The position numbers and the translations under genes are program-made. DNA of 64,000 nt from an uncultured Candidatus Saccharibacteria bacterium (lineage in GTDB: Bacteria; Patescibacteriota; Minisyncoccia; Phycocordibacterales; UBA2100): assembly GCA_964545165.1 (NCBI GenBank), contig CAZJEQ010000003.1, positions 52,990 through 116,989 of the forward strand, written 5' to 3'. The notes beneath the pieces are model-generated. The model was not told the origin of the DNA and ran no database searches. It saw nothing but the letters and a program-made list of their open reading frames with translations. Shown in pieces: positions 8,476 through 53,400 of the stretch (its first letter is position 1; the number at the start of each line of letters is the position of its first letter).

Positions 8476-8548
8476 GGCGAAGATTGTACCCCGTAGTAGA
8501 TGTTGGCGAAAGGCGTACCTGGGTAGCGACACTTTAGAGCCGTACTGT

Positions 8549-9949: not shown

Positions 9950-9957
9950 GAAGACGT

Positions 9958-13761: not shown

Positions 13762-13839
13762 GTGGTCACGATATCACACGGCATCTGCATAAAAAAGAGT
13801 CGCACCACGCGCTGCATCTACAACATGGAATGAGACAGC

Positions 13840-14421
13840 TCAATAGCGTAGTTCGGGGGCCGCACTGTATCCGGGACGGAGCGCGAGATGGCGGTGTACA
13901 TTAAAGCCGTTTTTATTCACGCCAACGGGATCCTCATAGCGCCCGACGTAGACACGGTCGCCATTATGATCTCGATCTGACGTCCAAAGAAAATCATGTT
14001 TCCACAGGATTTCTTTATGGAGCGCATGCCAGGCGAAAAAAGTCAGGGCACAGGTAACGGCGCTCGGGAATCGTTCGTTTAATAGCGCGAATTCAATATC
14101 TGCGGGATCTTTTGCGCGCGCATCCTCAAGGACATCTTTACGCACGAGATGCCATTTTCCATCCGGTGGAGTATTTGCAAAATCTTCCTTGAGATACCAA
14201 TCTTGATTGTACATGCACGGCTCTTGTGTCGACGGATCCACCCCGAAGATGTCCCTCATCGAGACCAGCGTCAGCTGCGTAAGTGACGGAGTATAGATCA
14301 AAATATGAGTTGATTCATGCTGGGCTATAGTCTCCGTGGAAAAGGGACTCTCGGGTGCGATGATCACTTCTCCCGCGAGAGCGGGAAGCACGTGTAACTC
14401 CTCTGGACCGATGATATTCAT
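13840..14421 (-). CDS. Hypothetical protein
   Basis: 193 aa with a protein-like composition, in an operonic position. I did not recognise a domain. Confidence 0.45.
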   Translation of the reverse strand: MNIIGPEELHVLPALAGEVIIAPESPFSTETIAQHESTHILIYTPSLTQLTLVSMRDIFGVDPSTQEPCMYNQDWYLKEDFANTPPDGKWHLVRKDVLEDARAKDPADIEFALLNERFPSAVTCALTFFAWHALHKEILWKHDFLWTSDRDHNGDRVYVGRYEDPVGVNKNGFNVHRHLALRPGYSAAPELRY

Positions 14422-14987
14422 AGCACTGAGAGGTATGCAATGCCCTCTTCATACGAGGCGACATCGCCTTTTTGCTGATATAGCTCAATCCTATCAAACT
14501 CCTGTGGCAGCCGTGATCGACGCGTGCCCCACGGCAGCACTTCATCCATCGAAAGCGGCGCGGGAGCATTGATCAGCCTGAGGGTCAGCGATGCATCATG
14601 CATGGCTTTCACAAATGTGAGGTACGCACGCCATTGATGATGCGGCGACGTCACGATCAAGAGCGCCTTCCAGCCTTCTTGCTGTGCGAGCTGCATAGCA
14701 CGCTCTGCTTCAGCGCGAGTATGGGGTGCGACTTCTTCAAAATAGAGTGCTGCATCCGGGAGTCCGAGCTCCAGCATCTTGCTGCGTACTTCGCGCGACG
14801 GGTAACTTCCGTAGGAGCGATCGTCCGCACTCCCAACGAGCGCAACCCGGGGCGCTAATCCTTGCCGAAATAGATCGACCGCATGGGGTGCTCGGAAAAG
14901 CCCATCACCTTGAAGCAAGAAAATAACATCACCTGCGCGCACGGGCTGCTGCTGCAAAAGCGATACAAACGTATCCTTCGGACTCAT
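14418..14987 (-). CDS. DUF218 (YdcF/SanA/ElyC-like) domain protein
   Basis: VIFLLQGDG...RVALVGSADD...LIVTSPHHQWRA matches DUF218 motifs. Confidence 0.6.
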   Translation of the reverse strand: MSPKDTFVSLLQQQPVRAGDVIFLLQGDGLFRAPHAVDLFRQGLAPRVALVGSADDRSYGSYPSREVRSKMLELGLPDAALYFEEVAPHTRAEAERAMQLAQQEGWKALLIVTSPHHQWRAYLTFVKAMHDASLTLRLINAPAPLSMDEVLPWGTRRSRLPQEFDRIELYQQKGDVASYEEGIAYLSVL

Positions 14988-16075
14988 GCAATATCTTCCC
15001 AGCGGATTGGGTCTCCGCTTTTCAGAGCACGCTTGACGCGTTTGCCCACGAGTGTCTGTTTATACTTGGGATAGATGCCGAGTGCCGGACGAAGCTCTAT
15101 CATATCGGCAACTTCGATGATCGTATTCGCCGCGATGTCACGGGCAGCGGTGAGACCGCGTCGCTGCACGATGACGGTCTCGGATTCTTCCGCGACTACG
15201 TCTTTCTTCCCGGTTCCCATTGCCGCCTCCAGATTGCGTGTACGCTCGATCATTCGTGCAAACTCGTGAGGTTCCATGGAGTGCGGATGATCTGGTCCCT
15301 TGAGCGTGCGGTCGAGCGTAAAATGCTTCTCTATGACTCGAGCGCCCCGTGTTACAGCACCGAGCGGCACCACGTCATCCGGTGTGTGGTCCGAATAGCC
15401 GAGAATGGCACCGAAGGCCTCTCGGTACGTATTGAGCACATTAATATTGGCACTCTCAAACTTCGAAGGATAATTCGTAATGCATTGCATGAGAACGAGA
15501 TCTTTGTTGCCCGTCTTCTCTATGGTGCGTACTGCCTCATCCACTTCGGCGAGCGTGGAGGCGCCAGTTGCCAACATAACGGGCTTCCCCTTCCGAGCAA
15601 CATACTCGATCATTTCGAGCCACGTGATGTCGCCTGAGCCGATTTTATAGAACTCAATACCAATCTCATCAACAAGGTCAACCGCCTCGTAGTCATACGC
15701 AGCGGTCGAAGGTGTGATGCCAATTTCCCAGCAGTATTCGAAAAATGCCTTATGCCAGTCGCGTGGGAATTCTACTTCAGCAAACACCTCATCGACCGGG
15801 CGCTTCCATGAGCCATGCACCCCCTTAAGATCCATGGTCGCAAATGCTTCGCGAGAAACAATCTTCTTAGCTTTGAAGCTCTGAATCTTGGCACAGTCTG
15901 CACCGACGCGCTTCGCCTCGCGCGCGTATTCTTTTGCTTTTTCAAGATTGCCATCAAAATTCGCACCGATCTCGGCGATAAAGTACGTCGGTGCCCCCTC
16001 GCCAATGGTTTTTGATCCAACCGAAATTTGTTGTGCAAATCCCGTGTCGTGTGGCTTATTATTCATGCGTTTCAA
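14984..16075 (-). CDS. Nonulosonic acid synthase (NeuB/PseI/LegI family)
   Basis: PTYFIAEIGANFDGNLEKAKEYAREAKRVGADCAKIQSF matches the NeuB family. Confidence 0.85.
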   Translation of the reverse strand: MKRMNNKPHDTGFAQQISVGSKTIGEGAPTYFIAEIGANFDGNLEKAKEYAREAKRVGADCAKIQSFKAKKIVSREAFATMDLKGVHGSWKRPVDEVFAEVEFPRDWHKAFFEYCWEIGITPSTAAYDYEAVDLVDEIGIEFYKIGSGDITWLEMIEYVARKGKPVMLATGASTLAEVDEAVRTIEKTGNKDLVLMQCITNYPSKFESANINVLNTYREAFGAILGYSDHTPDDVVPLGAVTRGARVIEKHFTLDRTLKGPDHPHSMEPHEFARMIERTRNLEAAMGTGKKDVVAEESETVIVQRRGLTAARDIAANTIIEVADMIELRPALGIYPKYKQTLVGKRVKRALKSGDPIRWEDIA

Positions 16076-17057
16076 GCGTCGCCAAGAGCTTCCTCATGTC
16101 CTTTTCGGAGAGGATTTGTTCGTTAGTATCACTGTAATATTCAAACCCTTCAGGCAATTTCTTCGCACCCGCGTATTTTTTCATGTCGTAATTGATCTCT
16201 TGCAGTGATGGTGAAAAGACAACATATCGATCACTCATTTCATACGCAATTCGTCCTTCTTCTTTCGTAACTAAGCACTCATGCAATTTCTCTCCCGGTC
16301 GAATACCAACAATTCGACACGTGGCCTCAGGCGCGATGGTTTTGGCAAGATCAACTAATTTCATAGAGGGAATCTTTGGTACGAACATTTCGCCGCCCTG
16401 CATAATCTCAAGACTCGTGAGTACCAGGTCCACGGCATCTGAGAGTGTGATCCAGAAGCGCGTCATACGCTCATCTGTAATCGTCAGCTCCCCCTTCGCC
16501 TTCTGCATTTGGAAAAGTGGAATCACGGAGCCGCGACTTCCCATGACATTACCGTACCGCACGACGGAGAACGCAGTCTGACGATGCCCACGATAACTAT
16601 TAGATTGCACAAAGAGTCTATCGGAACAGAGTTTTGTGGCGCCATACAGATTCACCGGGCTCGCCGCCTTGTCGGTAGAAAGTGCAATAACACGTGGGAT
16701 GTTATTGTCGAGCGCGGCATTGATAACATTCATTGCGCCGTCAACATTGGTCTTGATCGCTTCCATCGGATTGTATTCGCAGGCAGGCACCTGCTTCATT
16801 GCAGCGGCGTGGATGATGATGTCGACACCTTCGCTCGCGCGACGCACTCGTGCTGCGTCGCGCACATCACCAACAAGAAAACGCAGCTTTGGTGAATCAT
16901 TGAATTCACGCTGCATATTCCACTGTTTCAACTCGTCGCGACTGAACACGCGAATCACTTTTGGATTGTGCTCTTCGAGGAGTTTCTTGACGCACGCACG
17001 ACCAAATGATCCCGTGCCTCCAGTAATTAGGATGGTTTTACCATCAACAATCGACAT
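16059..17057 (-). CDS. UDP-GlcNAc 4,6-dehydratase (PseB/CapD-like extended SDR)
   Basis: KTILITGGTGSFGRACVKKLL... The length and motifs fit PseB/FlaA1. Confidence 0.8.
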   Translation of the reverse strand: MSIVDGKTILITGGTGSFGRACVKKLLEEHNPKVIRVFSRDELKQWNMQREFNDSPKLRFLVGDVRDAARVRRASEGVDIIIHAAAMKQVPACEYNPMEAIKTNVDGAMNVINAALDNNIPRVIALSTDKAASPVNLYGATKLCSDRLFVQSNSYRGHRQTAFSVVRYGNVMGSRGSVIPLFQMQKAKGELTITDERMTRFWITLSDAVDLVLTSLEIMQGGEMFVPKIPSMKLVDLAKTIAPEATCRIVGIRPGEKLHECLVTKEEGRIAYEMSDRYVVFSPSLQEINYDMKKYAGAKKLPEGFEYYSDTNEQILSEKDMRKLLATLETHE

Positions 17058-17113
17058 ACCGCGCGACTATACCACGCGATAGACTACCTGGGAACAGGTG
17101 CTGCATGTGTGCA

Positions 17114-17929
17114 TCATGCCGTCGCAGAGAGTCCCGAGATAACCGGGGGTATCTCATGGGTGAGGTCGCCTCGTATATATGCGTCTACCATATCGTTATT
17201 GAAGAGATCATAGATGACCCTGAGATGCTCGGGTCGAAAGTCTGCCTCTCGATAGAGTCGGCCCGCAGAACGCTGCTCATGAGCCTCGAAACTCCCGTCG
17301 AGTACGCGCTTCTTCAAAAGCGCCACCATGTCACGGCTCGATTGGACAACGGTCTTACACGCCACATCGTGAATACCGTCACCGGCTTCCAGGACAGGCA
17401 GTGATTGATGGATGATGGCACCCGCGTCCGCTGCAGCGACAATTTGATGAATAGTTGCGCCACAATACTGCGGCTGCATATTATAGAAAGGCCAGAACAG
17501 CGTCGCGGCTCCGCGATACCATGGCGAGAGACCCAGATGCAGATTCACGCGATCACGGGGGAGTGCGGCGAGTACCGGATCCTTGATAAGCATGGTCCCG
17601 AAAATAACGACAACATCTGGTGCGCACGACGTCACGAATGACGCGGTTTCAGCAGTGTTGAGTGAGGCTGGGGTACAGTAACGCACCGGTGTAGAAGTAA
17701 AAACCGACTGAGCGGTACGATCTCCGAAGTACTTCTTCTCCGCAATGACACGGTCCTCAAAATGACGCACGAAATTTTGAAGATCATGCGCAGAGATATT
17801 CGGCGGCGGTGTCGGAGACATGTGCTCGCGCTGCATGCACACTACACCGCACACCTCTACGGCATCGAGAATAGCTTTATGGAAGGCCACGTGCCTCCGG
17901 TGGTCGCCTGAAAAAAGGAGGACTTTCAC
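17114..17929 (-). CDS. Formyltransferase-family protein (Fmt N-domain-like)
   Basis: The motif VNLHLGLSPWYRGAATLFWPFYN resembles the formyl-transferase active-site region. Confidence 0.6.
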   Translation of the reverse strand: MKVLLFSGDHRRHVAFHKAILDAVEVCGVVCMQREHMSPTPPPNISAHDLQNFVRHFEDRVIAEKKYFGDRTAQSVFTSTPVRYCTPASLNTAETASFVTSCAPDVVVIFGTMLIKDPVLAALPRDRVNLHLGLSPWYRGAATLFWPFYNMQPQYCGATIHQIVAAADAGAIIHQSLPVLEAGDGIHDVACKTVVQSSRDMVALLKKRVLDGSFEAHEQRSAGRLYREADFRPEHLRVIYDLFNNDMVDAYIRGDLTHEIPPVISGLSATA

Positions 17930-18016
17930 CTCCGTACTCTATAGCGTGCCGTACATGCGCGCAACATGCCAAAGTGCTAGAATGCTGGTCACATACGGCT
18001 CCAGCCTCGCACCATC

Positions 18017-19324
18017 ATGCACCACGCGCCTGACGCAGCATCGTTCGACCGATTACTGGAAAGACTGTTCCCTATTTGTCGGAGCATCACGGGGAGTGGC
18101 GTGAGAGAGACACTCAAGATACTGAACGAATACATACCTCTCACGATTCACGAAGTCCCGAGCGGCACGAAAGTTTTTGATTGGACCGTCCCGTCAGAGT
18201 GGAATATTGCGGATGCGTATATAAAAAATAGTCGGGGCGAGCGCATCATTGATTTCAAGGCAAACAATCTGCATGTCGTGAATTACAGCACGCCAGTACA
18301 CCAATCAATGACGCTCGCGGAATTGCGCCCACATCTGCATTCTCTGCCGGAGCAACCCGATATTATTCCCTACAAGACCTCCTACTACCATCCAAACTGG
18401 GGCTTTTGTCTTACACACAATCAAGCGCTCGGCCTTACCGATGACACGTACGAAGTTGTCATCGACTCGACGCTCGCGCCGGGCAATCTAACGTACGGGG
18501 AATTGTTTGTGCCCGGAGAAATCGAAGAGACGGTGCTGATTTCTTGTTACGTGTGCCATCCGTCTATGGCTAACGATAATTTAAGCGGTGTGGTACTTTC
18601 TACCTTTCTCGCGCGCGAGATTCTCGCGAAGCCGCGACGCCATTCGTATCGCTTTCTATTTGTCCCCGAAACAATTGGCACGATTACCTGGCTTGCGCGC
18701 AATGAGCAAGCGGTCTCACATATTGCTCACGGACTCGTCGCCACATGCATCGGAGACAAGGGGCCGTTTACCTACAAGAAAAGCCGAAGTGGTAGAGCGC
18801 AGATAGATTTGGTAGCCGCGCAGGCGCTCCGAGAAGCCGGCGTACCTCACTCCATCATTGATTTCGCTCCGACCGGGAGCGATGAGCGGCAGTATTGTTC
18901 GCCGGGATTTGATCTTCCTGTGGGATCCTTGATGCGCACCATGTACGGTCAATTCTCGCAGTACCACACAAGCGCTGACGATCTCTCCTTCGTGCGCGGT
19001 GAATATCTGGTGCAGAGCCTCTCACTATACAACGCCATTGTCTCACTGCTTGAGACGAATGCGCGATTCGAAAGAAATCACCTGTACAAAAATATTAACC
19101 CGAAAGCAGAGCCACAGCTTGGCAAGCGCGGCCTCTACACGGCGATCGGTCCATCCAAAAATGAAGCAGAAAATGAACTCGCGATGTTCTGGGTGCTCAA
19201 TCTCTCTGACGGGACGAATTCGCTGCTCGATATTGCGCTCAGATCTAACATCCCCTTTGAGCGGATCCGAGAGATCGCCGATATTTTGATCGAACATCGT
19301 CTACTTGAAGAAGTCCGCGCGTAA
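18017..19324 (+). CDS. Aminopeptidase-like (M28-fold, DUF4910-type) protein common in polysaccharide loci
   Basis: 435 aa. Recognised from memory only. Confidence 0.4.
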   Translation: MHHAPDAASFDRLLERLFPICRSITGSGVRETLKILNEYIPLTIHEVPSGTKVFDWTVPSEWNIADAYIKNSRGERIIDFKANNLHVVNYSTPVHQSMTLAELRPHLHSLPEQPDIIPYKTSYYHPNWGFCLTHNQALGLTDDTYEVVIDSTLAPGNLTYGELFVPGEIEETVLISCYVCHPSMANDNLSGVVLSTFLAREILAKPRRHSYRFLFVPETIGTITWLARNEQAVSHIAHGLVATCIGDKGPFTYKKSRSGRAQIDLVAAQALREAGVPHSIIDFAPTGSDERQYCSPGFDLPVGSLMRTMYGQFSQYHTSADDLSFVRGEYLVQSLSLYNAIVSLLETNARFERNHLYKNINPKAEPQLGKRGLYTAIGPSKNEAENELAMFWVLNLSDGTNSLLDIALRSNIPFERIREIADILIEHRLLEEVRA

Positions 19325-19327
19325 TCG

Positions 19328-21253
19328 CTATTGACGCACGAAGCCGGCAGGACGAGATGGCAAATCTTCGCGCAAAAACGCTGCCAATCGCTCCGACGAA
19401 TGGCCATCAAAGGCGTACTCTCTCCTGAGAAACTCCTTGCCACGTTCGGCCACTTCTTGCCGATGCACAGGCTGCACAAGTGCTCTCATCGCGTCAACGA
19501 GAGCTGCATATGAAGCGGCTCCGACGCCGGCATCTTTAAAGCGCGCACGGAAATACGTATCGTACGCTTTTACTGGGTACAGCACGAGTGCCTTCTCAGC
19601 AATCAGCGCCTCGAACATCATGGTCGAATTACCCACCATGACTACGTCGGCCAAGCGTAGTACCGGAAACGCATCGCCATCAACGCACGCAATACCACCA
19701 TCGGGAAACACTTCAGAAATGAACCGCTGATACAGCGTCGTCATTGATCCGGGTCGGAATTTAAGGATGAGTTGGATATCGGGCACCGCGTCGTAAAGCG
19801 CTCGCAGTTCGCGTATATAGGCAGCACATTCGTGCGGATAAAAATCCATGTACAGCGAATTCGGACCTTCGGTCGGGAACGCCACCACCACGATCATCTT
19901 CTCAGGATCAAGGCCAAATCGCCGGATGTGGGCCACGCGCTCAGCCTGCGACAGTGCTAAATTTTGCAAATACGCATCAAACCGCGGCGATCCGATGGGC
20001 CGCACACGCTCAGGCGCGATGCCTAACTGCGCACGCATCATCTCTTGTGTCCCCCGACCATACGCCGCCAAATACGCCGCTTCGATGCGAGAACGTACGG
20101 TACGTGGGTCCACGATTTCTATTGCGTGCTGCAGTTCGATCGACGGCACGTTGAGTGCATACGCCACACGTGTCGCTACGAAGAAGTGTGGCTGCCGTCC
20201 GCTGTGACTGGCGCGCAAGACGACGCGATTACTCTTTTCCGTGCGTATGATGCGCTCCATCGCAAGCGCCTCTGCAATGACGCGCACCGCGTACGTGCGG
20301 ACAAGGTCGCGCGCTGCGTCTTCGACAAGCGGCCACCAATCGAGATTAGGAGAAACATGGCGGACAACCACTCTGATCGCTGGCATAGCACGCTGATACG
20401 CGGCGACATACTGCTTCGCTTCTTCAGCGGCAGCGGCACGCATATCGTCAGTCATCACGTCCAACGGATGCACAAACCGAATTCGATGCGAAAGAATAGC
20501 GCTCCACGGAATATTCTTGAATTCGCTGCGATCCATCAAGACAAGCTCTGCATCCGGCATGTGCTTGAGCAGTGGCGCGATATGCGACCAATATTCACTT
20601 GCAAATATTTTTATCTGACGCGTCGGTACACTCCATCGCACCAGTGCATTGAGCACGCGAAGTGCGCGATGTCGCCATGTTATACGCTCATGCAGCACCG
20701 TGCTCGGCGGCACACTCGCACCTTGCCCGATCACGCGTGTGTGCATACCGCGCCGTGCGATGACGAATCGCACGGCGTCAGTGAGCGCGCGTGCCTCAAA
20801 AAAAGCCAAGGGCCCGGCGCCATAGGAAATCCTCCGACCCCCTTCAGGAATGATGATTTCAGCCACATGCGGATGCGCCTCAACGACAGCTTCCACATGA
20901 TGTGCAAAGCGAAGCACGCGCTGGAGGTAAATTCTGAGTGGCGGTTCAAGGGCTTCACCAATGCGCACCTCTCCATGACGAAAGAAGGTCATCTCTGGTA
21001 TGCGATACCATAGACGAGCGAACGATTCTGCATTCGAGAGTACCTGCTCGAGTGCCTCGGCACTCCCCTGGTAGCGATCAAACGGCTCATGCGGTACGCC
21101 GCGTGCACGCAGCTCCTCTTGCGCCCAGAAATCCAACGCAATAACGGTCGGCGTCGCTTCCGTTGTGCGGACCTCTTCGGATATCTCGCGAGCCGTCCGT
21201 GCATCACATGCGATGATCAAGCGTTCTGGTGTCATATACGAACCTGTATGCAC
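19328..21253 (-). CDS. GT-B-fold glycosyl/glycerophosphotransferase (TagB/TagF/KpsS-like)
   Basis: The C-terminal region DVVMVGNSTMMFEALIAEKALVLYP resembles the nucleotide-binding half of TagF/capsule transferases. Confidence 0.4.
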   Translation of the reverse strand: MHTGSYMTPERLIIACDARTAREISEEVRTTEATPTVIALDFWAQEELRARGVPHEPFDRYQGSAEALEQVLSNAESFARLWYRIPEMTFFRHGEVRIGEALEPPLRIYLQRVLRFAHHVEAVVEAHPHVAEIIIPEGGRRISYGAGPLAFFEARALTDAVRFVIARRGMHTRVIGQGASVPPSTVLHERITWRHRALRVLNALVRWSVPTRQIKIFASEYWSHIAPLLKHMPDAELVLMDRSEFKNIPWSAILSHRIRFVHPLDVMTDDMRAAAAEEAKQYVAAYQRAMPAIRVVVRHVSPNLDWWPLVEDAARDLVRTYAVRVIAEALAMERIIRTEKSNRVVLRASHSGRQPHFFVATRVAYALNVPSIELQHAIEIVDPRTVRSRIEAAYLAAYGRGTQEMMRAQLGIAPERVRPIGSPRFDAYLQNLALSQAERVAHIRRFGLDPEKMIVVVAFPTEGPNSLYMDFYPHECAAYIRELRALYDAVPDIQLILKFRPGSMTTLYQRFISEVFPDGGIACVDGDAFPVLRLADVVMVGNSTMMFEALIAEKALVLYPVKAYDTYFRARFKDAGVGAASYAALVDAMRALVQPVHRQEVAERGKEFLRREYAFDGHSSERLAAFLREDLPSRPAGFVRQ

Positions 21254-21271
21254 GTATCTACGCGCGATAGT

Positions 21272-22072
21272 TCACGCGTGGTCAAACGTGTCTTGAAGCG
21301 AAGCGATGCGATGTTCGAGCGTAAAGAATACGCCAAAAATTTCTCGCAGGAGGAACGCCCAGAAAAACGCCGCATACGTGTAGATCGCGAATGAGAGCAA
21401 CGGATGGCCTGCAAGATCGGCAAACCACAGACGCTCTGCAAGCGATGCCAAGAAAAGTACGATGACCATGACTGCAAAATAGCGAAGACTGTAGACAAAC
21501 TGCTTGAGCGAGCGTACCGAGCCGACCGATGGATGTGCATCATCATGAAGCACCGGCGTCTCCACACTTCGCGTCGGTAGAGTGAAATTCTTGCGGTGCT
21601 GCGCGTAGTGCACGTACATATAGCGCGGAAGATCTCCATTGACGCGCGTAAATGTGAGCGCGAGCGCACCGAGCATGCCGGTGACGAGAAGCGGCATATT
21701 CGGCGTACCGAATGCATCCGACACCCAGAGCGTGAGTCCAAAAAAGAAGAGACTCTCCATTCCAACATGATTCAATAGATCAAGGTAGACCCCGCGAAGA
21801 GAATATTTCTTTTTATATCGTGCAACTTCTCCATCAGTGGCATCGAGGACGATACAGAGATAGGTGAGGAAGAAGCCAAGCCATATGGAGCCGAGCGCCA
21901 GCGCGAGCGCACCGACAATTCCCGTCAGGAGCATAAGGACCGTGATCTGATTGGGGGTCACGCTCGTCGAAAGGAAAAGACGCGTGAGGTAAATCGAGAG
22001 CTTCCGCTGCAATATAGGATGCCCTGCGACATTGGTCTGCAACATACCCCGCAATGTTTTGATCGATTCCAT
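21272..22072 (-). CDS. CDP-alcohol phosphatidyltransferase-family membrane protein
   Basis: LDATDGEVARYKKKYSLRGVYLDLLNH matches the D-x2-DG-x2-AR...G-x3-D motif, with the last Asp replaced by His. Polytopic. Confidence 0.7.
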   Translation of the reverse strand: MESIKTLRGMLQTNVAGHPILQRKLSIYLTRLFLSTSVTPNQITVLMLLTGIVGALALALGSIWLGFFLTYLCIVLDATDGEVARYKKKYSLRGVYLDLLNHVGMESLFFFGLTLWVSDAFGTPNMPLLVTGMLGALALTFTRVNGDLPRYMYVHYAQHRKNFTLPTRSVETPVLHDDAHPSVGSVRSLKQFVYSLRYFAVMVIVLFLASLAERLWFADLAGHPLLSFAIYTYAAFFWAFLLREIFGVFFTLEHRIASLQDTFDHA

Positions 22073-22114
22073 GGTGCGATAGTACCCTAGAAAATTCCCG
22101 TTGGATACACGCCC

Positions 22115-23227
22115 TTAGAGCATCTCGGCGAGAGTCTCGCGGACGGCATGCTCCGTAAATCGGCGTGGGTTGTTCGCCGCGCGCTGCTCGGATACGTCAG
22201 CGAGAATGGTCGAGAAATCTGTCTGTGCAATGCCAAATTCCGAAAGCCGCGTGGCGAGACCACAATCATGGATCAGCATGCCGAGCTGCTGCGCTGCGGC
22301 CTCCGCATCTCTCGCACCTATTAACGTGTTGATCTCAGCAAGCGCGTCACGCACGTACTGTGCGCCTCGCTGGTCGTTGCAATCTGCGTCCGTCACCTCA
22401 GCATTAAAACGGATCAGCTGGCCAATCGAGAGTGCGACCGCATGGCCATGCGGTATGCCGAAGTGCGCGGTAAGCGGATAGGAGAGCGCGTGCGAGGCCG
22501 TGGTGCGAGAGATATTAATTGCCTTGCCGGCGAGGTGCGCGGCACGCATCATTCCCTCCCGCGCCGCCTTGTCACTCTGTATCGCGCCACGGAGATTCGC
22601 CAGCGCGAGCGTGATCGCTTCACGTGCATATGCTTTTGACTCATTCGTTGATCGCACCGACCAGTACGATTCAACACCCTGACAAAGCGCATCGAGCCCG
22701 GATGCGGCTGTGACAGCGGCGGGCAGATCGTACGTGCACACAGAATCTGCGATCGAATACTCAGGCAATATATATTCGTGGTCGAGTGAATACTTTTTGC
22801 TGCCGATGTAGACCACTGCAAATTGTGTCGCCTCGCTGCCCGAGCCCGCGGTCGTCGGGATGGCGATCAGTGGTACGCCCCTGTGCTCTAACTTCGCCGA
22901 CCCTTCTACATATGCGGTAGGCGCATCGGTCTGTGCGGCAAGCGCGTTCACGCTCTTGGCCATATCAATAACGCTGCCGCCGCCAATGGCGACGACGCAC
23001 TCAGGATCGAATGCGCGATATGCCGCGATACCCTTCGCCACCTCTTCGATCGCGGGATTCGGCGAGAAATCAGAAAACCGCTCAACCTCGACTCCCTCCA
23101 GGCACGGAGCTACCAGTGGCTCGACCGATGCGTACGACGCACCGCCCGTGACGAGCAAGACGCGCTTGGCGCCCAGCTTCTGTATGATCTCGCGCAGCGC
23201 TTCGATGTGTTGGAATTCTTGCTGCAT
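22115..23227 (-). CDS. Iron-containing (group III) alcohol dehydrogenase; phosphonoacetaldehyde reductase (FomC/PhpC)-like
   Basis: Fe-ADH motifs (VLLVTGG..., AIGGGSVIDMAKS). It is adjacent to the ppd and pepM homologues. Confidence 0.7.
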   Translation of the reverse strand: MQQEFQHIEALREIIQKLGAKRVLLVTGGASYASVEPLVAPCLEGVEVERFSDFSPNPAIEEVAKGIAAYRAFDPECVVAIGGGSVIDMAKSVNALAAQTDAPTAYVEGSAKLEHRGVPLIAIPTTAGSGSEATQFAVVYIGSKKYSLDHEYILPEYSIADSVCTYDLPAAVTAASGLDALCQGVESYWSVRSTNESKAYAREAITLALANLRGAIQSDKAAREGMMRAAHLAGKAINISRTTASHALSYPLTAHFGIPHGHAVALSIGQLIRFNAEVTDADCNDQRGAQYVRDALAEINTLIGARDAEAAAQQLGMLIHDCGLATRLSEFGIAQTDFSTILADVSEQRAANNPRRFTEHAVRETLAEML

Positions 23228-23234
23228 ACCTCCA

Positions 23235-24365
23235 CTATCGCTTCTTGAGGAATTTCATCAAGTCCTTTTTATTCTGAAGCGGCGTGCGGGTGGGGCGTCC
23301 CAGATCTTTGCGGCTCCCGCCAGCGATGCGGATCTCGAGGAGTGCCGGTCCTTTCGCTTTCTTGAGCTTCGCCATACCGGCTTTGAGGTCTTTCGATGTC
23401 GAGGCGACGACAGCATCACGATACCCAGATGCCTCAGCGATCTTCTTAAAATTCGCGACGAAGCCTGCTGTGGGTTGTCCGCCGACGGATTCGTGTACGC
23501 CATTGTTGAAGACGATGTGCTTGAGGTTTTTTGGCGCTGCCTGGCCAATGACGGTCCAGCCGCCGAGGTGCATGATCGCCGCGCCGTCGCCATCGAAGCA
23601 GTAGACCGGGCGCTTCGGCTGCGCGAGTGCAATACCGAGCGCGATCTGCGAGGCGTGTCCCATGGAGCCCACGGTCAGGAAATCGCGGTGATGACCGGCC
23701 TTATGTGACTGCCGATGCTCGAAGAGTTCTCGTGACAATTTCCCCGTGGTCGAGACGACCACTGCATTCTCCGACACAAAAGCGGACATGATGTGGAGCG
23801 CTACTTCGCGCGTGAGCGGGTAATCGACACCGACTTGCTTCTTGGGCTTGTACGCTTCAAATGTACCTTCGCGCACCACAAGTGCAACGGGTCGATTTTC
23901 TTTCTTCGCTTTCGCGACGAGCTGCTTTACGCACGCGATCGCTTTGCGCTCGTCGGCGGGCAGAACCGCGTGCGCGATGCCGAGCGTCTTCAAAAGCGGG
24001 ATGGTGAGCGGACCCTGCGCGAGATGCTGCGGCTCATCGTGTTTTCCCGGCTCGCCGCGCCAACCGATGATCAGGAGAAGTGGCACAGCGTAGACCTTGG
24101 CGTGCGCCAGCGAGAGCAAGGGATTCACCGCATTGCCAAGCCCAGAATTCTGGAGATACACCGCAGCGATTTGTCCCGAGGCGAGATAGTGCCCCGCGGC
24201 AATCGCGACGGCATTCCCCTCATTGGCGGCGATGACATGTGATGTCGGACGTGCTCTGTCTGTGACGTAGGCGCAAAAATCCTTGAGCAACGAATCTGGC
24301 ACGCCAGTAAAAAATGTAACACCCTTCTTCTGCAGTGCGTCGAACAGTATCTTCGGGCGCACCAT
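23235..24365 (-). CDS. Phosphonopyruvate decarboxylase (TPP-dependent)
   Basis: 376 aa. N-terminus MVRPKILFDALQKKGVTFFTGVPDSLLKDF is typical of Ppd/AepY/Fom2. Confidence 0.8.
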   Translation of the reverse strand: MVRPKILFDALQKKGVTFFTGVPDSLLKDFCAYVTDRARPTSHVIAANEGNAVAIAAGHYLASGQIAAVYLQNSGLGNAVNPLLSLAHAKVYAVPLLLIIGWRGEPGKHDEPQHLAQGPLTIPLLKTLGIAHAVLPADERKAIACVKQLVAKAKKENRPVALVVREGTFEAYKPKKQVGVDYPLTREVALHIMSAFVSENAVVVSTTGKLSRELFEHRQSHKAGHHRDFLTVGSMGHASQIALGIALAQPKRPVYCFDGDGAAIMHLGGWTVIGQAAPKNLKHIVFNNGVHESVGGQPTAGFVANFKKIAEASGYRDAVVASTSKDLKAGMAKLKKAKGPALLEIRIAGGSRKDLGRPTRTPLQNKKDLMKFLKKR

Positions 24366-24367
24366 AG

Positions 24368-25720
24368 CTACTGAGCACCTCCCTTCCAGTCGATGAGGCG
24401 GAGAATGTTTTTCAAGGGCATACAGTACGCCTCGTCTGCCTCATGCGAGCGACCATGCTCGAGGATGGACTCGGCCGTCTTGACCATGGCAGGATAAGCA
24501 CTTCTGAGAAGGTGATTGGCATAGATCACCATGTTGACCCCTGCTTTCTCAAGCTCTGCTTCCGTGATGACGTTGTAGGTCGTTGGCACCGCGACGAGCA
24601 TCACTTTGTCTTTAAATTTCGCATACGCTTTGCAGAATTCGAGAACCTCTGCGGGATCCTTTTCTTTACTGTGGATCATGATGCCATCCGCACCTGCCGC
24701 AATATAGGCCTTTGCACGAATGAGCGCATCCTCAACCCCTTTCCCAGCGATAAGACTCTCGAGTCGCGCGATGATCATAAAGTCTTCCGTCACCTGCGCG
24801 CGTTTTCCTTCGTGGATCTTGTGCGCGAATGCATCCACATCCTCGAGCTGTTGCTCAACTTCGGTGCCGAAGAGCGAATTCTGCTTGAGGCCGCGTTTAT
24901 CTTCTATGATCACCGCCGAGACACCAAGGCGCTCGAGTGTGCGCACCAGATACGGGAATCGCTCTGTCATCCCACCTGTGTCGCCATCAAACACCAGCGG
25001 CTTCGTCGTGACTTCGAGGATGTCGTGGAGCGTGGTGACACGCGAGGTGTTGTCGACGAGCTCGATGTCGGGCTTACCCTTGGACGTCGAATCCGTGAGA
25101 CTCGACGACCACATAAAATCGAAATCGCGCTTCACGCCGTCGACGACGACCGAGGTGTGCTCGGCGATAAGTCCCGTGAGTCCGTTGTGCGCTTCGATAC
25201 CACGGATGAGGGGCTTTGCCTGCAGCAGCCGATTCAAGCGTTTGAGACGGATCTGCGGAGTGGTGCCAATTTCTTTGAGCGCCGCATTGAGGGCGGTGGA
25301 TGAGACACCGCGCGTGTACGGCACCTCGACGAGCTGACCTCCCCACGAGCTGAGCGTTTCGATGACCTGCTCGCGCGTGCGGCGCTGCACCCCGTGTTTC
25401 CAATCGTCGCCATGCACCACAACATCAGGTTTGTACTTTTTCAGATTCGGGCGGTAATCGAGAGTTTTTTGTGGCACGACCTGCGAGACCCCTTTTATAT
25501 TTTCGATCACGACTTTGCGCTGCTCATACGGCATGTGTGGCAGGCGCTTGTAGCTCGCGATAGCGGTATCCGTGAGGAGGCCGACGGTGACGTCGCCCAA
25601 CTCCGCACCCTTTTGGATGATATTCAAATGTCCGGGATGGACAAGATCTGCGCTCATGCCGATGTAGACCTGGGGGTGCTTTTTAGACGGCGAGGAGCTC
25701 TTTTTGTTGTTTTTGACCAT
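24368..25720 (-). CDS. Fused cytidylyltransferase / PEP phosphomutase (Fom1-like)
   Basis: N-terminal HxGH nucleotidyltransferase ([18 protein letters not shown]). C-terminal PepM/ICL-fold ([15 protein letters not shown]...). Start set at internal M20 of tracked ORF 24368..25777. Confidence 0.8.
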
Positions 25721-25788
25721 GTCAGCAAAGTACAACTTTTGGGCCAAAATTGCAAGTCCCTTACGGGGACAGCGCATCTCTGCAGCGA

Positions 25789-26919
25789 TCAGCTGCTGCG
25801 TCGGATGAATTCCATGATGCGCTCAGTGCGCTTCTGCCAGGAGTGCTGCTCGGCAAGAGCGCGAGCCCGCTCCAGCATCGCCTGGTCGGCGCTCTCGAGT
25901 GCACGGCGTACGCTCTCGGTGAGCGAGTGCGCATCATCCGGCTCGTACCAATACACATCCCCTTCGGCGATAAAGCTCTTGAGGGCCGGTGTCGCGCTCG
26001 CGACAATCGGGCGTCGTGCCGCCATGTATTCATACACTTTCATGGGCGTCGTGTGTCGAAATGACTCTTCGTTGGTTGTGGTGCCTAAAATGATCAGTGC
26101 ATCGGCGGCGGCAAGCCAGGTGGGTACCTGCGCGGGACCGCACTCGCCCATGATGCGCAGATTCGGCGGGCGCATGCCGCCGACTACCGCATCCCACTCG
26201 GCTTCGGAGCCGCCGACCACATAGAAGGTAATATCCGGCATCGCGCGCGCCGCATCATGCAAGATGTCGAGCCCCTTCCAATCAAAGAAGCGGCCGAGAT
26301 ACAGCGCACTCTGTTCGTCACTCGACAATCCGAGGCGTCGGCGCGCCTCTTCGCGGGATGGCATGGATTCATAACGGGCAAGGTCCACGCCATTGGGCTC
26401 GATCAGGATCGGCACATGCGGTGCGGTGAATCCATTTTCCGAGGGTGTGTTATGCACGCTGGTCGCAATAATGCCGTCCGCGTGTCGGAAGAAAAACCGA
26501 TTGAGCAAGGTGCGCGATTTGCCGGTGTGCATTTCCGCAAAGACCGGAAATCCACGTCGAATGAGCAACGCGTACGAGAAGGTGTCCATATCTATCGTAT
26601 AGACGACTGCCTTTCCTCGCATCCGCTCGCGCAAAAGGTACAGTCCACTCGTGACGATAAACACGAGCGAACTGAGAAAGAACCAGAAACGCCCGCTCGC
26701 GTATCCATCGATCCCCGGGAGAATCCGTGTCGGTATATCGACACGCAGTTCATAAAAATCCTTCATCGTTGCCGAAGAAGCGGCGCGCGTGCGCGGTATC
26801 ACCAGCTCGAGATCGACGCCGGACTCAATAAACGCCTCACACATCTTGGCGATCTGGACACCGTATGCCTTCTTGTTCGGCAGACGCGCATTTACCACGT
26901 AGTAGATCTTTGCTTTCAT
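25789..26919 (-). CDS. GT4 glycosyltransferase
   Basis: GT-B architecture with C-terminal E-x7-E-like motifs. Confidence 0.8.
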
Positions 26920-27701
26920 AGCTGCGGTGAGTCGAGCACGTCGCCGTTTCGAGATGCAGAAAAAAGCACCACGCGCCCGCCGGGCACATCCGTCGTCGAG
27001 ACGCGGTGTGTTTTCTGTAGTGTCGCGACAGCCTCATCAATAGATCGTCCGGTTTTTACCGGGTGCAGCTCTCCGAGGATCAGTCGAACATGCGGCAGGG
27101 CGCGAGTGGATTGCAGCACATCGAATTCCGCTCCCTCGATGTCGATCTTGAGGATGTCGACCGACTCGTCTCCCACGATCTCGTCGAGCGTCACCGATGC
27201 GACAAGCCGCTCGACGGCCTCATCTGATCGGAAAAAAGACGATTGCGTACTTCTATCGGACTCAAAGAAACTGATCTCCCCTCCGCTGGCCGATACTGCC
27301 GCTTGGTGCAGCTCGATCTTGGCATCATGCGCAAAATTCTTCTGGAGCGTGGCAAAGGCCGCCGCGCCCGGTTCGTATGCGCGAATCTGCGCTTCCGGAT
27401 ACTTCAAACGAAACCACAGTACCGAGATGCCGATATTTGCTCCGAGATCGATAATGGTGCGGACGCGCTCGAGATTCGTTTCGTACGAGCCGGTCACGAA
27501 CACGTCGTTGATTGTATAGATGTCGCCAATATCGCCCGTGAGATGAACAATGCCGGAGCGACCGAAGGCGCGCAGCGAGACCGTGTAGGCGCCTGCGTAC
27601 CACACGAGTGCATGGTACAAAAGCTTCATCGCAGACAGCGGATCCGCTGCGCAGTGGATGATCTGCATCACGATGCGGACTTTGTTGAAGAGTCGTTTCA
27701 T
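26916..27701 (-). CDS. FkbM-family SAM-dependent methyltransferase
   Basis: IIDLGANIGISVLWFRLKYPEAQIRAYEP. Start set at internal M68 to remove the overlap with the upstream GT4. Confidence 0.7.
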   Translation of the reverse strand: MKRLFNKVRIVMQIIHCAADPLSAMKLLYHALVWYAGAYTVSLRAFGRSGIVHLTGDIGDIYTINDVFVTGSYETNLERVRTIIDLGANIGISVLWFRLKYPEAQIRAYEPGAAAFATLQKNFAHDAKIELHQAAVSASGGEISFFESDRSTQSSFFRSDEAVERLVASVTLDEIVGDESVDILKIDIEGAEFDVLQSTRALPHVRLILGELHPVKTGRSIDEAVATLQKTHRVSTTDVPGGRVVLFSASRNGDVLDSPQL

Positions 27702-28714
27702 AGTGAGGAGAGGATCTTTGTGGTCAATGCGGTCAGCGAATGGCGCGCTTCGACCTCCGCGCGAAGCTGTGTGACATCGATCGATGCGGCTGCGGTGATT
27801 GTCTCTGCCAGGATCTCGGGAGCGTTGTCCTCGAGAAAGAGGCCGGTACCCGCGAGTAGGGATCGGAAGGGTGCACTCGATGAGATGGCGGGAATGCCGC
27901 ACGCGAGCGCTTCGAGGACGACCTTATCATAGCCACCGGTCGCGCTGATGTTTACGAGCACGTCACTCTCGCGTAACTTCCCGGGCAACTCCGCGTATGC
28001 AACGGCACCCGCAAACTGTACCCGGTCTTTGTAGGATCGCGTACCGATCTCATCCTTGAGTAGCCCGGCGTATATGCGCTCCTCTTCGGTAAGCGGTGTG
28101 CCTATAATGGTCAACGTAAAATCGACCGCGCGTCTGTGCAGCTCATCGCAGGCGAGCAGTATTTCCCGTAAGCCCTTGGAGGCAGCGATGCGGCCGATCG
28201 AAACAATCCGCAATCCCTGGTGCGGTGCACGAACGCCCGGAGAAAAGCGCTCGGTGTCGATGCCGTGTCCGACGACTCGTATTTTCTTTGAGCGAATGCC
28301 GATGCTCGCCGGCGAGACGGTAAATATGACGTGGGCAACGAAAGCTGCTACTCGGAGCCACAGTGTGATGCTTTTGTGCACGTACCACAGACCGATTCGC
28401 TTATTCCAGAGCCGCCAGAGAATCCCACCGAGCACGACGTACTGGGGATTCATATGGACAAATACCGCATCGTACTCGCTTCGGAGTGTCCCTATGAGTC
28501 GATAAAATCGAAGCAGGTAGCCGAGTCGCGAAACGCCTGATTCCTTGCCGAGTGAATGGACTGTTACGTGAGAAGGTAGTGCATGCACACCTTCCTGCAA
28601 GGTGATGACGTGAATCTGCTCACATGCACGCGCCAGCGCCTCTATTTGCCCATGAAAAAAACCGAGATTTGAATGCTCTCGATCCACCACTTGCGTGACG
28701 ATGAGCAATTTCAT
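27698..28714 (-). CDS. GT4 glycosyltransferase
   Basis: 338 aa GT-B. Confidence 0.8.
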   Translation of the reverse strand: MKLLIVTQVVDREHSNLGFFHGQIEALARACEQIHVITLQEGVHALPSHVTVHSLGKESGVSRLGYLLRFYRLIGTLRSEYDAVFVHMNPQYVVLGGILWRLWNKRIGLWYVHKSITLWLRVAAFVAHVIFTVSPASIGIRSKKIRVVGHGIDTERFSPGVRAPHQGLRIVSIGRIAASKGLREILLACDELHRRAVDFTLTIIGTPLTEEERIYAGLLKDEIGTRSYKDRVQFAGAVAYAELPGKLRESDVLVNISATGGYDKVVLEALACGIPAISSSAPFRSLLAGTGLFLEDNAPEILAETITAAASIDVTQLRAEVEARHSLTALTTKILSSL

Positions 28715-30645: not shown

Positions 30646-31489
30646 TGATGCGGCGCAGAAGTGCTCGCACGACGCGCTGCACAAGTGCGAGGGCTCGGTG
30701 CGCAGGGCTGCCAAAAGTGCGCGAGACGATGTAGTGCTCGACACCACCAAACCCTTTTTTGAAATCGAGATGCGATTTGTCGTGCGCACCGGTGAGCCCA
30801 AAGTCGATGACCCGCGCTCCTTCGGTGATCGCGAGACGAATCATTTCGTCGTAGACGAGATTATTCACCCGCTGTGGCCAGCGGGAGGGGTCTGAGACGT
30901 TTTCCAAGAGATGTACGTATTCGCTGTGCACAATGTATACGGTGCTTCCCACGATCTTCTCGCCATCTCGTGCAACAACACAGCGCAGCGTATCGCCAAA
31001 GCACGCTTCAAGAGTTTTGAAATATTCGAGCCCGTGGGGCTTGGAGCCCAATCGGCCACGCGTCTCGAGATACAGATCGTGCCAGCCTGCTGGAATGGAT
31101 CCCCGTAAGACTTCGAGTGTAAACGAGGCTTCGCGCGCTCGCCTTGTCTGATTGCGCGTCTTGCCGTCGTAGAGATCCATGCGCGACTCGGCACGCATGC
31201 CTGGAGGGACAGCGAGCACGGGATGGAGATGTCGCGCGCGGAAGCGGTCTTGCGGGAGCGAAAAGCAACCCTCGACGACACCGTGTCTTCGCCCAATGAT
31301 CTCGGCTCGCTGTACAATCGCGGCACTGTCGCCAACAGTATAGAAACTTCCCCATCCGCCCCAAAAGAGTTTACCCCGGCTATCACGGTAGAGCGGCATG
31401 CCCTCTTCCTCAGCAACAAATGTCACACCAAATGCACGCTGCAAGAACGTAGCTGCGCCAGGATGCCGTGAGAGGCCGTACGTGGTCAT
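30638..31489 (-). CDS. GNAT-fold acyltransferase (FemAB/BioF2-like)
   Basis: Weak family resemblance only; the start is uncertain. Confidence 0.4.
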   Translation of the reverse strand: MTTYGLSRHPGAATFLQRAFGVTFVAEEEGMPLYRDSRGKLFWGGWGSFYTVGDSAAIVQRAEIIGRRHGVVEGCFSLPQDRFRARHLHPVLAVPPGMRAESRMDLYDGKTRNQTRRAREASFTLEVLRGSIPAGWHDLYLETRGRLGSKPHGLEYFKTLEACFGDTLRCVVARDGEKIVGSTVYIVHSEYVHLLENVSDPSRWPQRVNNLVYDEMIRLAITEGARVIDFGLTGAHDKSHLDFKKGFGGVEHYIVSRTFGSPAHRALALVQRVVRALLRRIIT

Positions 31490-32688
31490 ATTGCCATATG
31501 GTGCCACTCATTCACTGCTTTTGCGATGGCAAGCGCATCCGCTTTCGAGACATGCCGATGCGTCGGCAGATTGGCGATATGCTCAGCCATCTTCTCTGCC
31601 GTCGGACACTCGCCGGCGTACGAGGTGAGTGGCAAAACCTTTTTAGGGGCGACCGGCGCGTCGTACCACGTGTCGTGAATATCCACGCCGATTTTCTTGA
31701 GTGTCGCGATAAGGCCCTCTCTATTCCTTACGCGAACGGGGAAGCGCAGTACGGTAGCGTGTGGGATCGCGGCACATGCCTCGGCGAGCACAAGAGCCTG
31801 CTCGAGCTCTCGCGTATAGATCGCGGCAATCTCTCGGCGGTGCGCGATATCTTTCTCAAGACCGATGAGCACTTCCAGCGTGCGCCTGCAGAGCGCATCG
31901 GGCAATTCGCGTGCCTGCTTCTTCTTTTGTGAAGACTGCGTGGCGGGCTGCATTTTGTAGAAGGACCGGAGCAGTGCCTGTATGCCTTTGCCGAGACCGA
32001 TGGGGTAGGTCATGCGGATGATGACCGTGATGAGGAGGTACAGACGATTTTTCATCTGCTGAGAAAATGTCACGGGCGTGCGAGCCACAGAAATGTGCGA
32101 CTGGTATGCGGCGTTGCGCACTACCAACGCACCACCAGAAATCGCATCTACGATTTTGTCCTGGCTGAAGGACAGCATGGTGAGATCCCCCATGGTACCC
32201 ACCTCCTCTCCCGAGTCGTAGCGCGTACCCACCGAATGCGCGAGATCTTCGATAAGCACGACGCCACGCTCTTTGCAGAGCTGTGCTATGGCGCCAATCT
32301 CGCACGGAAATCCGAGCGTGTTTTGTATGATCGCGACTTTGATATCTGGATTCTTATCGAGTGCTGCGCGGAGTGTATCGGCAGAGAAATTGAGCGATGT
32401 CTCAGTGATATCGAGATAGCGGGGCACATATCCGCTTTTCACGACTGCTTCGTATACCGCAAAACATGTAAACCCATTGATAGCGACCCCGGAGCCGGGT
32501 GCACCAATTGCATCGAGTGCGAGACCAAGTGCTTCGCGCCCCTTATAGGTCAAAAAGGTCTTACCGCCGTATCGCGTATCAAGCAGGTCGATGAGTCGCT
32601 GACGCGCACCTGTGCTGCCCACAGAAAACAACACGCGTAGCGCCGACACGAACGTGTAGTTGGAGCCCAAAGAATTAAAGATGTTCAT
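31486..32688 (-). CDS. DegT/DnrJ/EryC1/StrS-family sugar aminotransferase
   Basis: Start set at internal M29 (MNIFNSLGSNY...). Confidence 0.85.
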   Translation of the reverse strand: MNIFNSLGSNYTFVSALRVLFSVGSTGARQRLIDLLDTRYGGKTFLTYKGREALGLALDAIGAPGSGVAINGFTCFAVYEAVVKSGYVPRYLDITETSLNFSADTLRAALDKNPDIKVAIIQNTLGFPCEIGAIAQLCKERGVVLIEDLAHSVGTRYDSGEEVGTMGDLTMLSFSQDKIVDAISGGALVVRNAAYQSHISVARTPVTFSQQMKNRLYLLITVIIRMTYPIGLGKGIQALLRSFYKMQPATQSSQKKKQARELPDALCRRTLEVLIGLEKDIAHRREIAAIYTRELEQALVLAEACAAIPHATVLRFPVRVRNREGLIATLKKIGVDIHDTWYDAPVAPKKVLPLTSYAGECPTAEKMAEHIANLPTHRHVSKADALAIAKAVNEWHHMAI

Positions 32689-32794
32689 GTTGTGTACGTG
32701 CGCATTGTGCGGCTCTGCCTGTGAAAGATCAATTCTCCGGATGTGCGTGCACCTCTCCGCGGGCCATGCCATAGTGGTCTCATATTTACTTCGT

Positions 32795-53214: not shown

Positions 53215-53400
53215 CGCGTTCGAACACTCGTAGGTGGAAAGTGAATCAGGGTGCAATTCCCTGGCTGTCGCGCAACCGTATAGTCGGAGCCTTTCCATTC
53301 CCCTCTTTCAAGGGCTACGTTCCGGCTCGCGCCAAGTCACCTTCCACAACTCCCCTTGTGGATCCTCATGACCCCGCGATCCGGGGTTTGTCGCGTATGT
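53215..53400 (+). ncRNA. Candidate cobalamin (AdoCbl) riboswitch
   Basis: The core 53234-53291, GGUGGAAAGUGAAUCAGGGUGCAAUUCCCUGGCUGUCGCGCAACCGUAUAGUCGGAGCC, aligns by eye to the recalled E. coli btuB segment AGGGAAUCCAGUGCGAAUCUGGAGCUGACGCGCAGCGGUAAGG and to the T. tengcongensis GGGUGAGAAUCCCGCGCAGCCCCCGCUACUGUGAGG. A 6-bp hairpin ACCCCG-CGAUC-CGGGGU plus UUGU follows at 53371-53390, just before the ATG. Not verified with a covariance model. Confidence 0.4.

Follow-up and report, generated by a model that had tools for sequence, protein, structure and literature searches.

A predicted hydroxyethylphosphonate module within a surface-glycan locus of a probable Patescibacteria bacterium

The early steps of fosfomycin biosynthesis in Streptomyces wedmorensis (Fom1, Fom2 and FomC) involve a cytidylyltransferase (PF01467) fused to a phosphoenolpyruvate (PEP) mutase, a phosphonopyruvate decarboxylase and an alcohol dehydrogenase (ADH) of group III, and pass through 2-hydroxyethylphosphonate activated with cytidine monophosphate (HEP and CMP-HEP, respectively). 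We describe a similar set of genes in a 64-kb stretch of DNA (the window, here meaning the whole stretch analysed) from a probable member of the Patescibacteria, or candidate phyla radiation (CPR). Unlike the fosfomycin cluster, the window shows neither the methyltransferase Fom3 nor the epoxidase Fom4 nor the hydrolase FomD, and its genes lie in a surface-glycan locus instead of an antibiotic cluster. Together with a fourth gene, for a membrane protein of the CDP-alcohol phosphotransferase family, they form a module that, as we read the sequence, is reasonably likely to make CMP-HEP and to decorate a surface glycan of this bacterium.

HEP is known from a surface polysaccharide. A HEP conjugate was purified from the exopolysaccharide of Stackebrandtia nassauensis (Yu et al. 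2014), according to the accounts of that work in PMC8942020 and PMC8931226. The window resembles this case in having FkbM and other methyltransferases close by; the Stackebrandtia host is an actinomycete, unlike that of the window. The HEP-bearing exopolysaccharide is reportedly O-methylated, and Glycomyces sp., likewise an actinomycete, is reported to make one as well. In PntC-type tailoring with CMP-activated 2-aminoethylphosphonate (AEP), and in the 'Burkholderiales_CDP-OH' clusters, a mutase-fused domain activates the phosphonate and transferases of phospholipid type follow, as they do in the window (PMC6697681, PMC8942020). Those systems rely on a transaminase to make AEP or hydroxy-AEP, and the ones that have been characterised use a PF12804 nucleotidyltransferase, whereas the window has a dehydrogenase route, a PF01467 domain and a variant transferase, with His in its motif, in a glycan locus.

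Two further groups of proteins are relevant to the transfer step. Mycobacterium tuberculosis PgsA1, AF2299 and IPCT-DIPPS share with the fourth gene of the module their fold and the motif D1xxD2GxxARx8GxxxD3; the window protein differs in having His for the fourth Asp, in a conserved N-terminal segment (MESIKELR..LQTN..GHP) and in its donor, which would be a CMP-phosphonate. TagF and TarL, and the Tannerella forsythia transferases for pseudaminic and legionaminic acid (BFO_1060 family), have a GT-B glycosyltransferase fold, use CMP- or CDP-linked donors and show remote similarity to the C-terminal half of p641, the product of the fifth gene. This protein differs from them by about 200 extra residues, by having no PF04464 match of its own and by scoring far under the cut-off of the Tannerella family model, NF046086.

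The biosynthetic logic of the module is thus already known, and what is modestly new is the conserved pairing of its cassette with a His-variant CDP-alcohol phosphotransferase. The enzymes that attach phosphonates to cell surfaces are largely uncharacterised, and HEP is reported among the most abundant phosphonates of marine dissolved organic matter. The module offers a compact, concrete candidate, in which four genes are predicted to suffice for making and transferring CMP-HEP.

Predicted route to CMP-HEP

The module and the gene that follows it comprise these features (window coordinates, strand in brackets):

24368-25777 (-): gene 1, fused cytidylyltransferase-PEP mutase, Fom1-like (PF01467 and PF13714)
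25268-25684 (-): cytidylyltransferase domain of gene 1, 68% identity to PDB 5X3D
24389-25237 (-): PEP mutase domain of gene 1, TIGR02320, 41.5% identical to 5UNC, a PEP mutase of solved structure
23235-24365 (-): gene 2, phosphonopyruvate decarboxylase, a thiamine pyrophosphate enzyme (TIGR03297)
22115-23227 (-): gene 3, PhpC-type phosphonoacetaldehyde reductase, a group III ADH of the Fe/Zn type (PF00465, PF25137)
21272-22072 (-): gene 4, CDP-alcohol-phosphotransferase-family membrane protein, candidate CMP-HEP phosphonyl transferase (PF01066)
19328-21253 (-): gene 5, p641, a 641-residue protein of GT-B fold, clade A (family profile and fold)

The five genes run head to tail on the minus strand (19328-25777), with gaps of 2, 7, 42 and 18 nt in order from gene 1 to gene 5; the start codon of gene 2 lies 2 nt past the mutase stop. 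The initial annotation, whose interval (21272-25720) corresponds to the first four genes, had described the cytidylyltransferase-mutase, the decarboxylase and the dehydrogenase as consecutive and co-oriented, and both gene calls and family matches agree. Gene 1 probably starts at the Met codon at 25720, giving 450 residues, and a database protein of the same length (P0001) is 100% identical to its product. Since a scan for promoters and terminators found sites no more frequently than in shuffled sequence, it is the short gaps that speak for an operon. The G+C content of the module equals that of its surroundings and is uniform across the region, a point in favour of the explanation that we prefer.

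Family models support the mutase assignment. Gene 1 passes the TIGR02320 PEP mutase equivalog (382.8, cut-off 319.55), and its scores against the models for methylisocitrate lyase and for phosphonopyruvate hydrolase lie far under their cut-offs. Its mutase domain carries the motif EDKxxxxxNS at residues 292-301 (window 24875-24904), which separates true PEP mutases from isocitrate-lyase paralogues (PMC6697681), so that the isocitrate lyase or methylisocitrate lyase paralogue that the initial annotation had considered as a possible refutation is not what we find. The cytidylyltransferase domain has HPGH (25628-25639) as its HxGH nucleotide-binding motif and TRGVSST at 25295-25315, and is identical to PDB 5X3D in 95 of 139 residues (68%, E 1e-64). 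The database labels this 160-residue structure simply 'phosphoenolpyruvate phosphomutase'; we take it to be the HEP cytidylyltransferase domain of Fom1. The reaction of Fom1 with HEP and CTP yields CMP-HEP (PMC6697681). Gene 2 passes the phosphonopyruvate decarboxylase equivalog TIGR03297 (489.1, cut-off 312.5) and falls under the cut-offs of the sulfopyruvate decarboxylase models.

For gene 3 we relied on active-site residues. The predicted metal ligands D179, Q183, H246 and H260 form the Asp, Gln, His, His set of sulfoacetaldehyde reductase, and the proposed substrate residues are K145, T242, Y250 (four positions after the His) and R349, of which K145, Y250 and R349 are invariant in 58/58 aligned ADHs linked to the cassette. 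The same Lys, Thr, Tyr (His+4) and Arg form the modelled HEP clamp of PhpC, known from an AlphaFold3 model and not from a solved complex (PMC13576164). The top solved match is the sulfoacetaldehyde reductase 6JKO, which has the same protein sequence as 6JKP, the Bifidobacterium enzyme whose substrate is the sulfonate isostere of phosphonoacetaldehyde (PMC13576164). The dehydrogenase, which the initial annotation feared might fall among non-phosphonate iron-dependent ADHs, groups with the cassette-linked enzymes and has PhpC-type residues. We rejected a catabolic role in HEP oxidation: mutase and decarboxylase are present, and PhnX, PhnA and PhnY were not detected.

The second metal-ligand position varies among the cassette-linked ADHs of the 80 loci described below (L001-L080), being Gln, as in sulfoacetaldehyde reductase, in 43/58 and His in 15/58. 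The His-type enzymes come mainly from Marinimicrobia and Bacillota and are about 29-33% identical to that of the window. Two ADH lineages thus appear to serve one cassette.

The sizeable open reading frames (ORFs) of the 64-kb window hold no detectable AEP transaminase (class V aminotransferase), and the aminotransferases present are limited to two sugar enzymes of DegT type (12541-13761 and 31486-32772); the transaminase, previously noted to be missing next to the module, went undetected across the entire window. Nor did these ORFs yield a B12 radical S-adenosylmethionine (radical-SAM) enzyme (Fom3), an epoxidase (Fom4), FomD, or a HEPD/MpnS-like or cupin oxygenase. Calling the module 'fosfomycin-type', as was done initially, is therefore misleading. 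The mutase tests, the likeness to 5X3D, the PhpC-type residues of the dehydrogenase and the absence of enzymes for alternative branches together lead us to predict CMP-HEP as the best-supported product of genes 1 to 3. The route first proposed for them, from PEP through phosphonopyruvate, phosphonoacetaldehyde and HEP to CMP-HEP, gains support from the family models, the mutase motif and these same likenesses.

The arrangement recurs well beyond this bacterium. We found more than 8000 homologues of the gene 1 fusion, and the best 120 listed all combine PF13714 and PF01467; the nearest named ones belong to Kaiserbacteria, Paceibacterota and Nomurabacteria. A survey of contigs from one genome per species gave 219 relatives, and the best 80 (61-70% identity) were used to examine the loci (handles of the form L001), counting adjacency only where a locus had room for the gene in question. 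These 80 span CPR, Bacteroidales, Marinimicrobia, Ignavibacteria, Bacillota, Scalindua and DPANN archaea. The decarboxylase directly follows the mutase in 68 of the 72 loci with room for it, and mutase, decarboxylase and ADH stand in direct succession in 53/61, while six further loci have the ADH at another place (59/61 in total). Carrying the ADH and not a transaminase, these closest fusion loci lend indirect support to HEP, over AEP, as the probable substrate of the cytidylyltransferase. Such counts indicate that the arrangement is more than chance. HEP-type neighbourhoods make up 8.5% of the published ppm neighbourhoods (PMC8942020). Given this proportion, the number of fusion homologues and the HEP of the Stackebrandtia exopolysaccharide, the initial remark that a HEP-decorated polymer would be unusual was overstated. 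Our literature searches for phosphonates in Patescibacteria gave nothing relevant.

Candidate transferases for the phosphonate

Gene 4 passes PF01066 (30.9, gathering score 22) and has the signature D77xxD80GxxARx8G94xxxD98xxxH102 at 21767-21844, including A84 and R85. The full CDP-alcohol signature, D1xxD2GxxARx8GxxxD3xxxD4, is thus incomplete, D4 being replaced by H102, which is nearly invariant in the family. The corresponding Asp of M. tuberculosis PgsA1 is the presumed catalytic base and a ligand of the second metal (PMC6506517). CDP-alcohol phosphotransferases are the sole matches to the predicted fold: all Foldseek hits at E <= 0.001 are PIP synthases (PgsA1 included) and AF2299, with IPCT-DIPPS next (3.3e-3). 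Scanning with the family in HMMER returned 1624 clusters at E <= 1e-10; among the 150 best inspected, 131 representatives bear the motif and 117 of them have His at the fourth position. The module therefore points to a large group within the CDP-alcohol phosphotransferases that has yet to be characterised and that has His in place of a catalytic Asp.

It is conserved gene order that makes gene 4 the best candidate for the HEP transferase. Homologues with 38-68% identity directly follow the mutase-decarboxylase-ADH trio in other CPR loci (L083, L085, L086, L087, L123, L127), and in L084 a single HD-domain gene is inserted between them. In L120 and L124 the homologue lies at the contig end, directly ahead of a p641-family gene. 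More distant or unrelated CDP-alcohol-family genes stand beside the cassette in metagenome-assembled genomes (MAGs) of Falkowbacteria, Bacillota (two), Pacearchaeota and one unclassified organism. The initial suggestion that the CDP-alcohol homologue could transfer the phosphonate is strengthened by this synteny: in each locus of CPR relatives that was examined the cassette is followed by this membrane transferase, which makes the two conserved partners there.

The steps of the mechanism that we propose would then be as follows. The mutase domain would convert PEP to phosphonopyruvate, and the decarboxylase would turn this into phosphonoacetaldehyde, drawing the unfavourable mutase reaction forward. 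The PhpC-type dehydrogenase would reduce phosphonoacetaldehyde to HEP, which the N-terminal Fom1-like domain would join with CTP in the cytoplasm. The CMP-HEP so formed resembles CDP-ethanolamine or CDP-glycerol in structure. Sequence and synteny argue strongly for these predicted steps. Gene 4 would move the phosphonyl group of HEP onto a hydroxyl, releasing CMP, with a lipid-linked oligosaccharide at the cytoplasmic face of the membrane as the most likely acceptor. The finished glycan, on which O-methyl groups and a nonulosonic acid are expected as well, would leave the cell through the ABC transporter, and enzymes of Wzy_C or PMT_2 type would attach it to the surface. We infer the acceptor and the export route, while the choice of transferase comes from the conserved gene order.

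The protein encoded next, p641, had been called TagF-like and put forward as a second phosphonate transferase. It has no Pfam match at E <= 1e-3, and so none to PF04464, to which some homologues match weakly; its family profile matches TarL (1.4e-7) and TagF (1.3e-5) in the C-terminal half only. The sole NCBIfam match is weak (NF046086, 39 bits against a cut-off of 200) and leads to the BFO_1060 family of Tannerella pseudaminic- and legionaminic-acid transferases, themselves TagB-like (PMC5420450). The AlphaFold model (pLDDT 91) has a GT-B fold, and Foldseek places TagF level with MshA and UDP-GlcNAc 2-epimerases (WecB), with no separation from GT4 enzymes or epimerases. ExQH, GSxRxD and K/R-x-R/K are invariant in the family, the His of ExQH376 being a candidate catalytic residue.

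The named homologues of p641 are all Patescibacteria or Parcubacteria records; the others are unlabelled, mostly on groundwater metagenome contigs. The nearest named homologues of the window's proteins, together with groundwater contigs from 0.1-um filters, point to a CPR origin for the window. The p641 family falls into three clades. Clade B always follows a gene 4 homologue and the cassette. Clade A occurs in about 30 metagenome loci that have neither mutase nor gene 4, often beside PseB-like, DUF4910 and other nonulosonic-acid genes, and clade C is a second copy in some of these loci. We rejected the idea that the window protein is a chimera: it belongs to clade A over its entire length. 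Because clade A normally sits in loci without phosphonate genes, the window copy is unlikely to be specific for HEP, and it is a weaker candidate for the phosphonate transferase than gene 4. Its probable role is that of a glycan-pathway transferase with a CMP- or CDP-linked donor, and it may transfer nonulosonic acid or another CMP/CDP-linked unit. Paralogues of clades A and C occur together in L102, L103, L105, L109, L113 and L114.

Three other explanations have to be weighed against transfer by gene 4 to a glycan. It is improbable, though worth keeping in mind, that p641 itself uses CMP-HEP, adding one HEP or polymerising it in teichoic-acid style, while gene 4 has another job such as priming. 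Other phyla lend this some force, since in 26/50 of their loci the gene right after the cassette encodes a canonical, TagF-like PF04464 enzyme and the GT-B protein could by the same token be the transferase here; in CPR relatives the p641-family gene always comes after gene 4, often with overlapping stop and start codons, and the family profile does match TarL and TagF. These points are countered by the clade of the window copy and the phosphonate-free company that clade keeps, by the missing PF04464 match and the sole NCBIfam match, to a Tannerella family, and by a fold search that leaves TagF, GT4 and epimerases undistinguished. We give a similarly low probability to a phosphonolipid, formed either by moving HEP from CMP-HEP to diacylglycerol or by condensing CDP-diacylglycerol with HEP to phosphatidyl-HEP. 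Lipid head-group synthases (PIP synthase, AF2299, DIPP synthase) are indeed the best fold and sequence matches of gene 4, and the large 'Burkholderiales_CDP-OH' group of mutase neighbourhoods is predicted to make phosphonolipids (PMC8942020). However, gene 4 always lies in glycan loci, among glycosyltransferases, methyltransferases and nonulosonic-acid genes, and if phosphatidyl-HEP were the product, the fused cytidylyltransferase would have nothing to do. De novo lipid synthesis is not generally known from CPR bacteria, which also speaks against a lipid product.

Far less probable than either is a pathway in which HEP is merely en route to a small compound that diffuses freely (fosfomycin-like, methylphosphonate or phosphinothricin-like), or in which an aminotransferase whose gene lies elsewhere leads to AEP as the true product. 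The early steps are common to fosfomycin biosynthesis, and a B12 radical-SAM gene adjoins the cassette in some CPR relatives (L064, L038, L083, L085). Yet the 64 kb hold no detected B12 radical-SAM enzyme, epoxidase, HEPD/MpnS-like enzyme or class V aminotransferase, and the module is embedded among glycan genes of the same orientation.

Several observations weigh against our preferred reading, decoration of a glycan with HEP by gene 4. Fusions of PF01467 to the mutase, 23.6% of mutases, are known from AEP-type neighbourhoods too (PMC8942020). Gene 3 stays under every NCBIfam equivalog cut-off (176 against 423.7 for TIGR03405, of PsrA type), and its assignment as a probable reductase of this pathway draws on residues and on comparison with cassette-linked ADHs. 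Gene 4 lacks the Asp presumed to act as catalytic base and metal ligand; characterised CDP-alcohol phosphotransferases are mostly lipid synthases; and the subfamily is not phosphonate-specific, for two distant His-variants are found in glycan loci that have no mutase gene. The PF04464 enzyme that follows the cassette in other phyla counts here as well. Given the mutase-free loci of the distant His-variants, the subfamily looks like one of general head-group transferases of glycan loci, with a CPR branch tied to HEP. More tentatively, and with rather less than even confidence, we suggest that the whole His-variant family consists of previously unassigned head-group transferases that decorate glycans and do not make lipids, its CPR members using CMP-HEP on a surface glycan that contains nonulosonic acid. 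If true, the family would provide the first named enzyme attaching HEP to a surface polymer, and ultra-small CPR bacteria and DPANN archaea would have in common a mobile cassette that lends the surface a charge resistant to phosphatases.

The surrounding locus and relatives of the cassette

The module is enclosed by a glycan locus of about 35 kb (about 6244-41155) that contains nonulosonic-acid genes, six GT4 and one GT2 glycosyltransferases, FkbM and other methyltransferases, an ABC exporter and attachment enzymes of Wzy_C and PMT_2 type. These neighbouring families bear out the original placement of the module in a surface-glycan locus. The following groups of genes lie nearest:

6244-11772 (-): export and attachment genes, namely a Wzy_C/O-antigen-ligase-like protein with TPR repeats, a PMT_2 family protein and a fused ABC exporter
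11796-19324: nonulosonic-acid genes, with CMP-sugar synthetase-like, DegT aminotransferase, DUF218, NeuB, PseB-like dehydratase and formyltransferase genes on the minus strand and DUF4910 on the plus strand
25789-28714 (-): upstream glycan-assembly genes (GT4, FkbM methyltransferase, GT4)

The genomes of CPR bacteria are tiny, and these organisms rely on contact with host cells. That some 35 kb is spent on a phosphonate- and nonulosonic-acid-bearing glycan suggests that the surface coat is important to their lifestyle.

The FkbM ORF (26916-27902, -) overlaps the upstream GT4 gene (27698-28714, -) by about 200 nt, and its true start is probably further downstream, because the Pfam match opens only at residue 149-152. 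The DUF4910/DUF2172 aminopeptidase-like protein (18017-19324, +) has a C-terminal winged helix, and proteins of DUF4910 type recur beside p641-family and nonulosonic-acid genes in the CPR loci L082, L083, L090, L101, L104, L114, L116, L121 and L126.

Relatives of the cassette differ in what accompanies it. B12-binding radical-SAM genes lie at or near it in L064 (13648-15072), L038 (14465-17125, fused to a GT4 domain), L083 (1-496) and L085 (1010-2842), and the window is without one; by analogy with Fom3, those of CPR relatives might C-methylate CMP-HEP. The same fusion, at 63-68% identity, occurs in DPANN MAGs of Woesearchaeota, Pacearchaeota, Aenigmatarchaeota and Nanoarchaeota (L036, L055, L028, L017, L065, L070), and in L028, L036 and L055 it is followed by the gene for a second nucleotidyltransferase, of PF12804 type. 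The presence of the fusion in DPANN archaea points to horizontal spread among ultra-small organisms. Loci of Bacteroidales type (L004, L007, L011, L013, L014, L016 and others) have the cassette and a TagF-like gene, then, second after the ADH, a protein of about 1000-1230 residues. Among the 35 second-downstream genes scanned, tallied together, 11 contain a 60KD_IMP (YidC-like) domain and five more a sulfatase domain.

Elsewhere in the window, eight unannotated ORFs have no NCBIfam matches. An adenosylcobalamin (AdoCbl-II) riboswitch aptamer at 53234-53298 (+) scores 39.6 bits, above its gathering score (36.5). Directly downstream lies a 670-residue ORF (53402-55414, +) with no Pfam or NCBIfam match, which is a predicted B12-regulated gene and is followed by one for a ClpB-like AAA protein. 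The remaining genes of note encode a fusion of a YkuD L,D-transpeptidase with an S11 D,D-carboxypeptidase (44766-46334, -), a TrwB-like coupling protein (42688-44607, -) and a protein like F420-0:gamma-glutamyl ligase (58690-59376, -).

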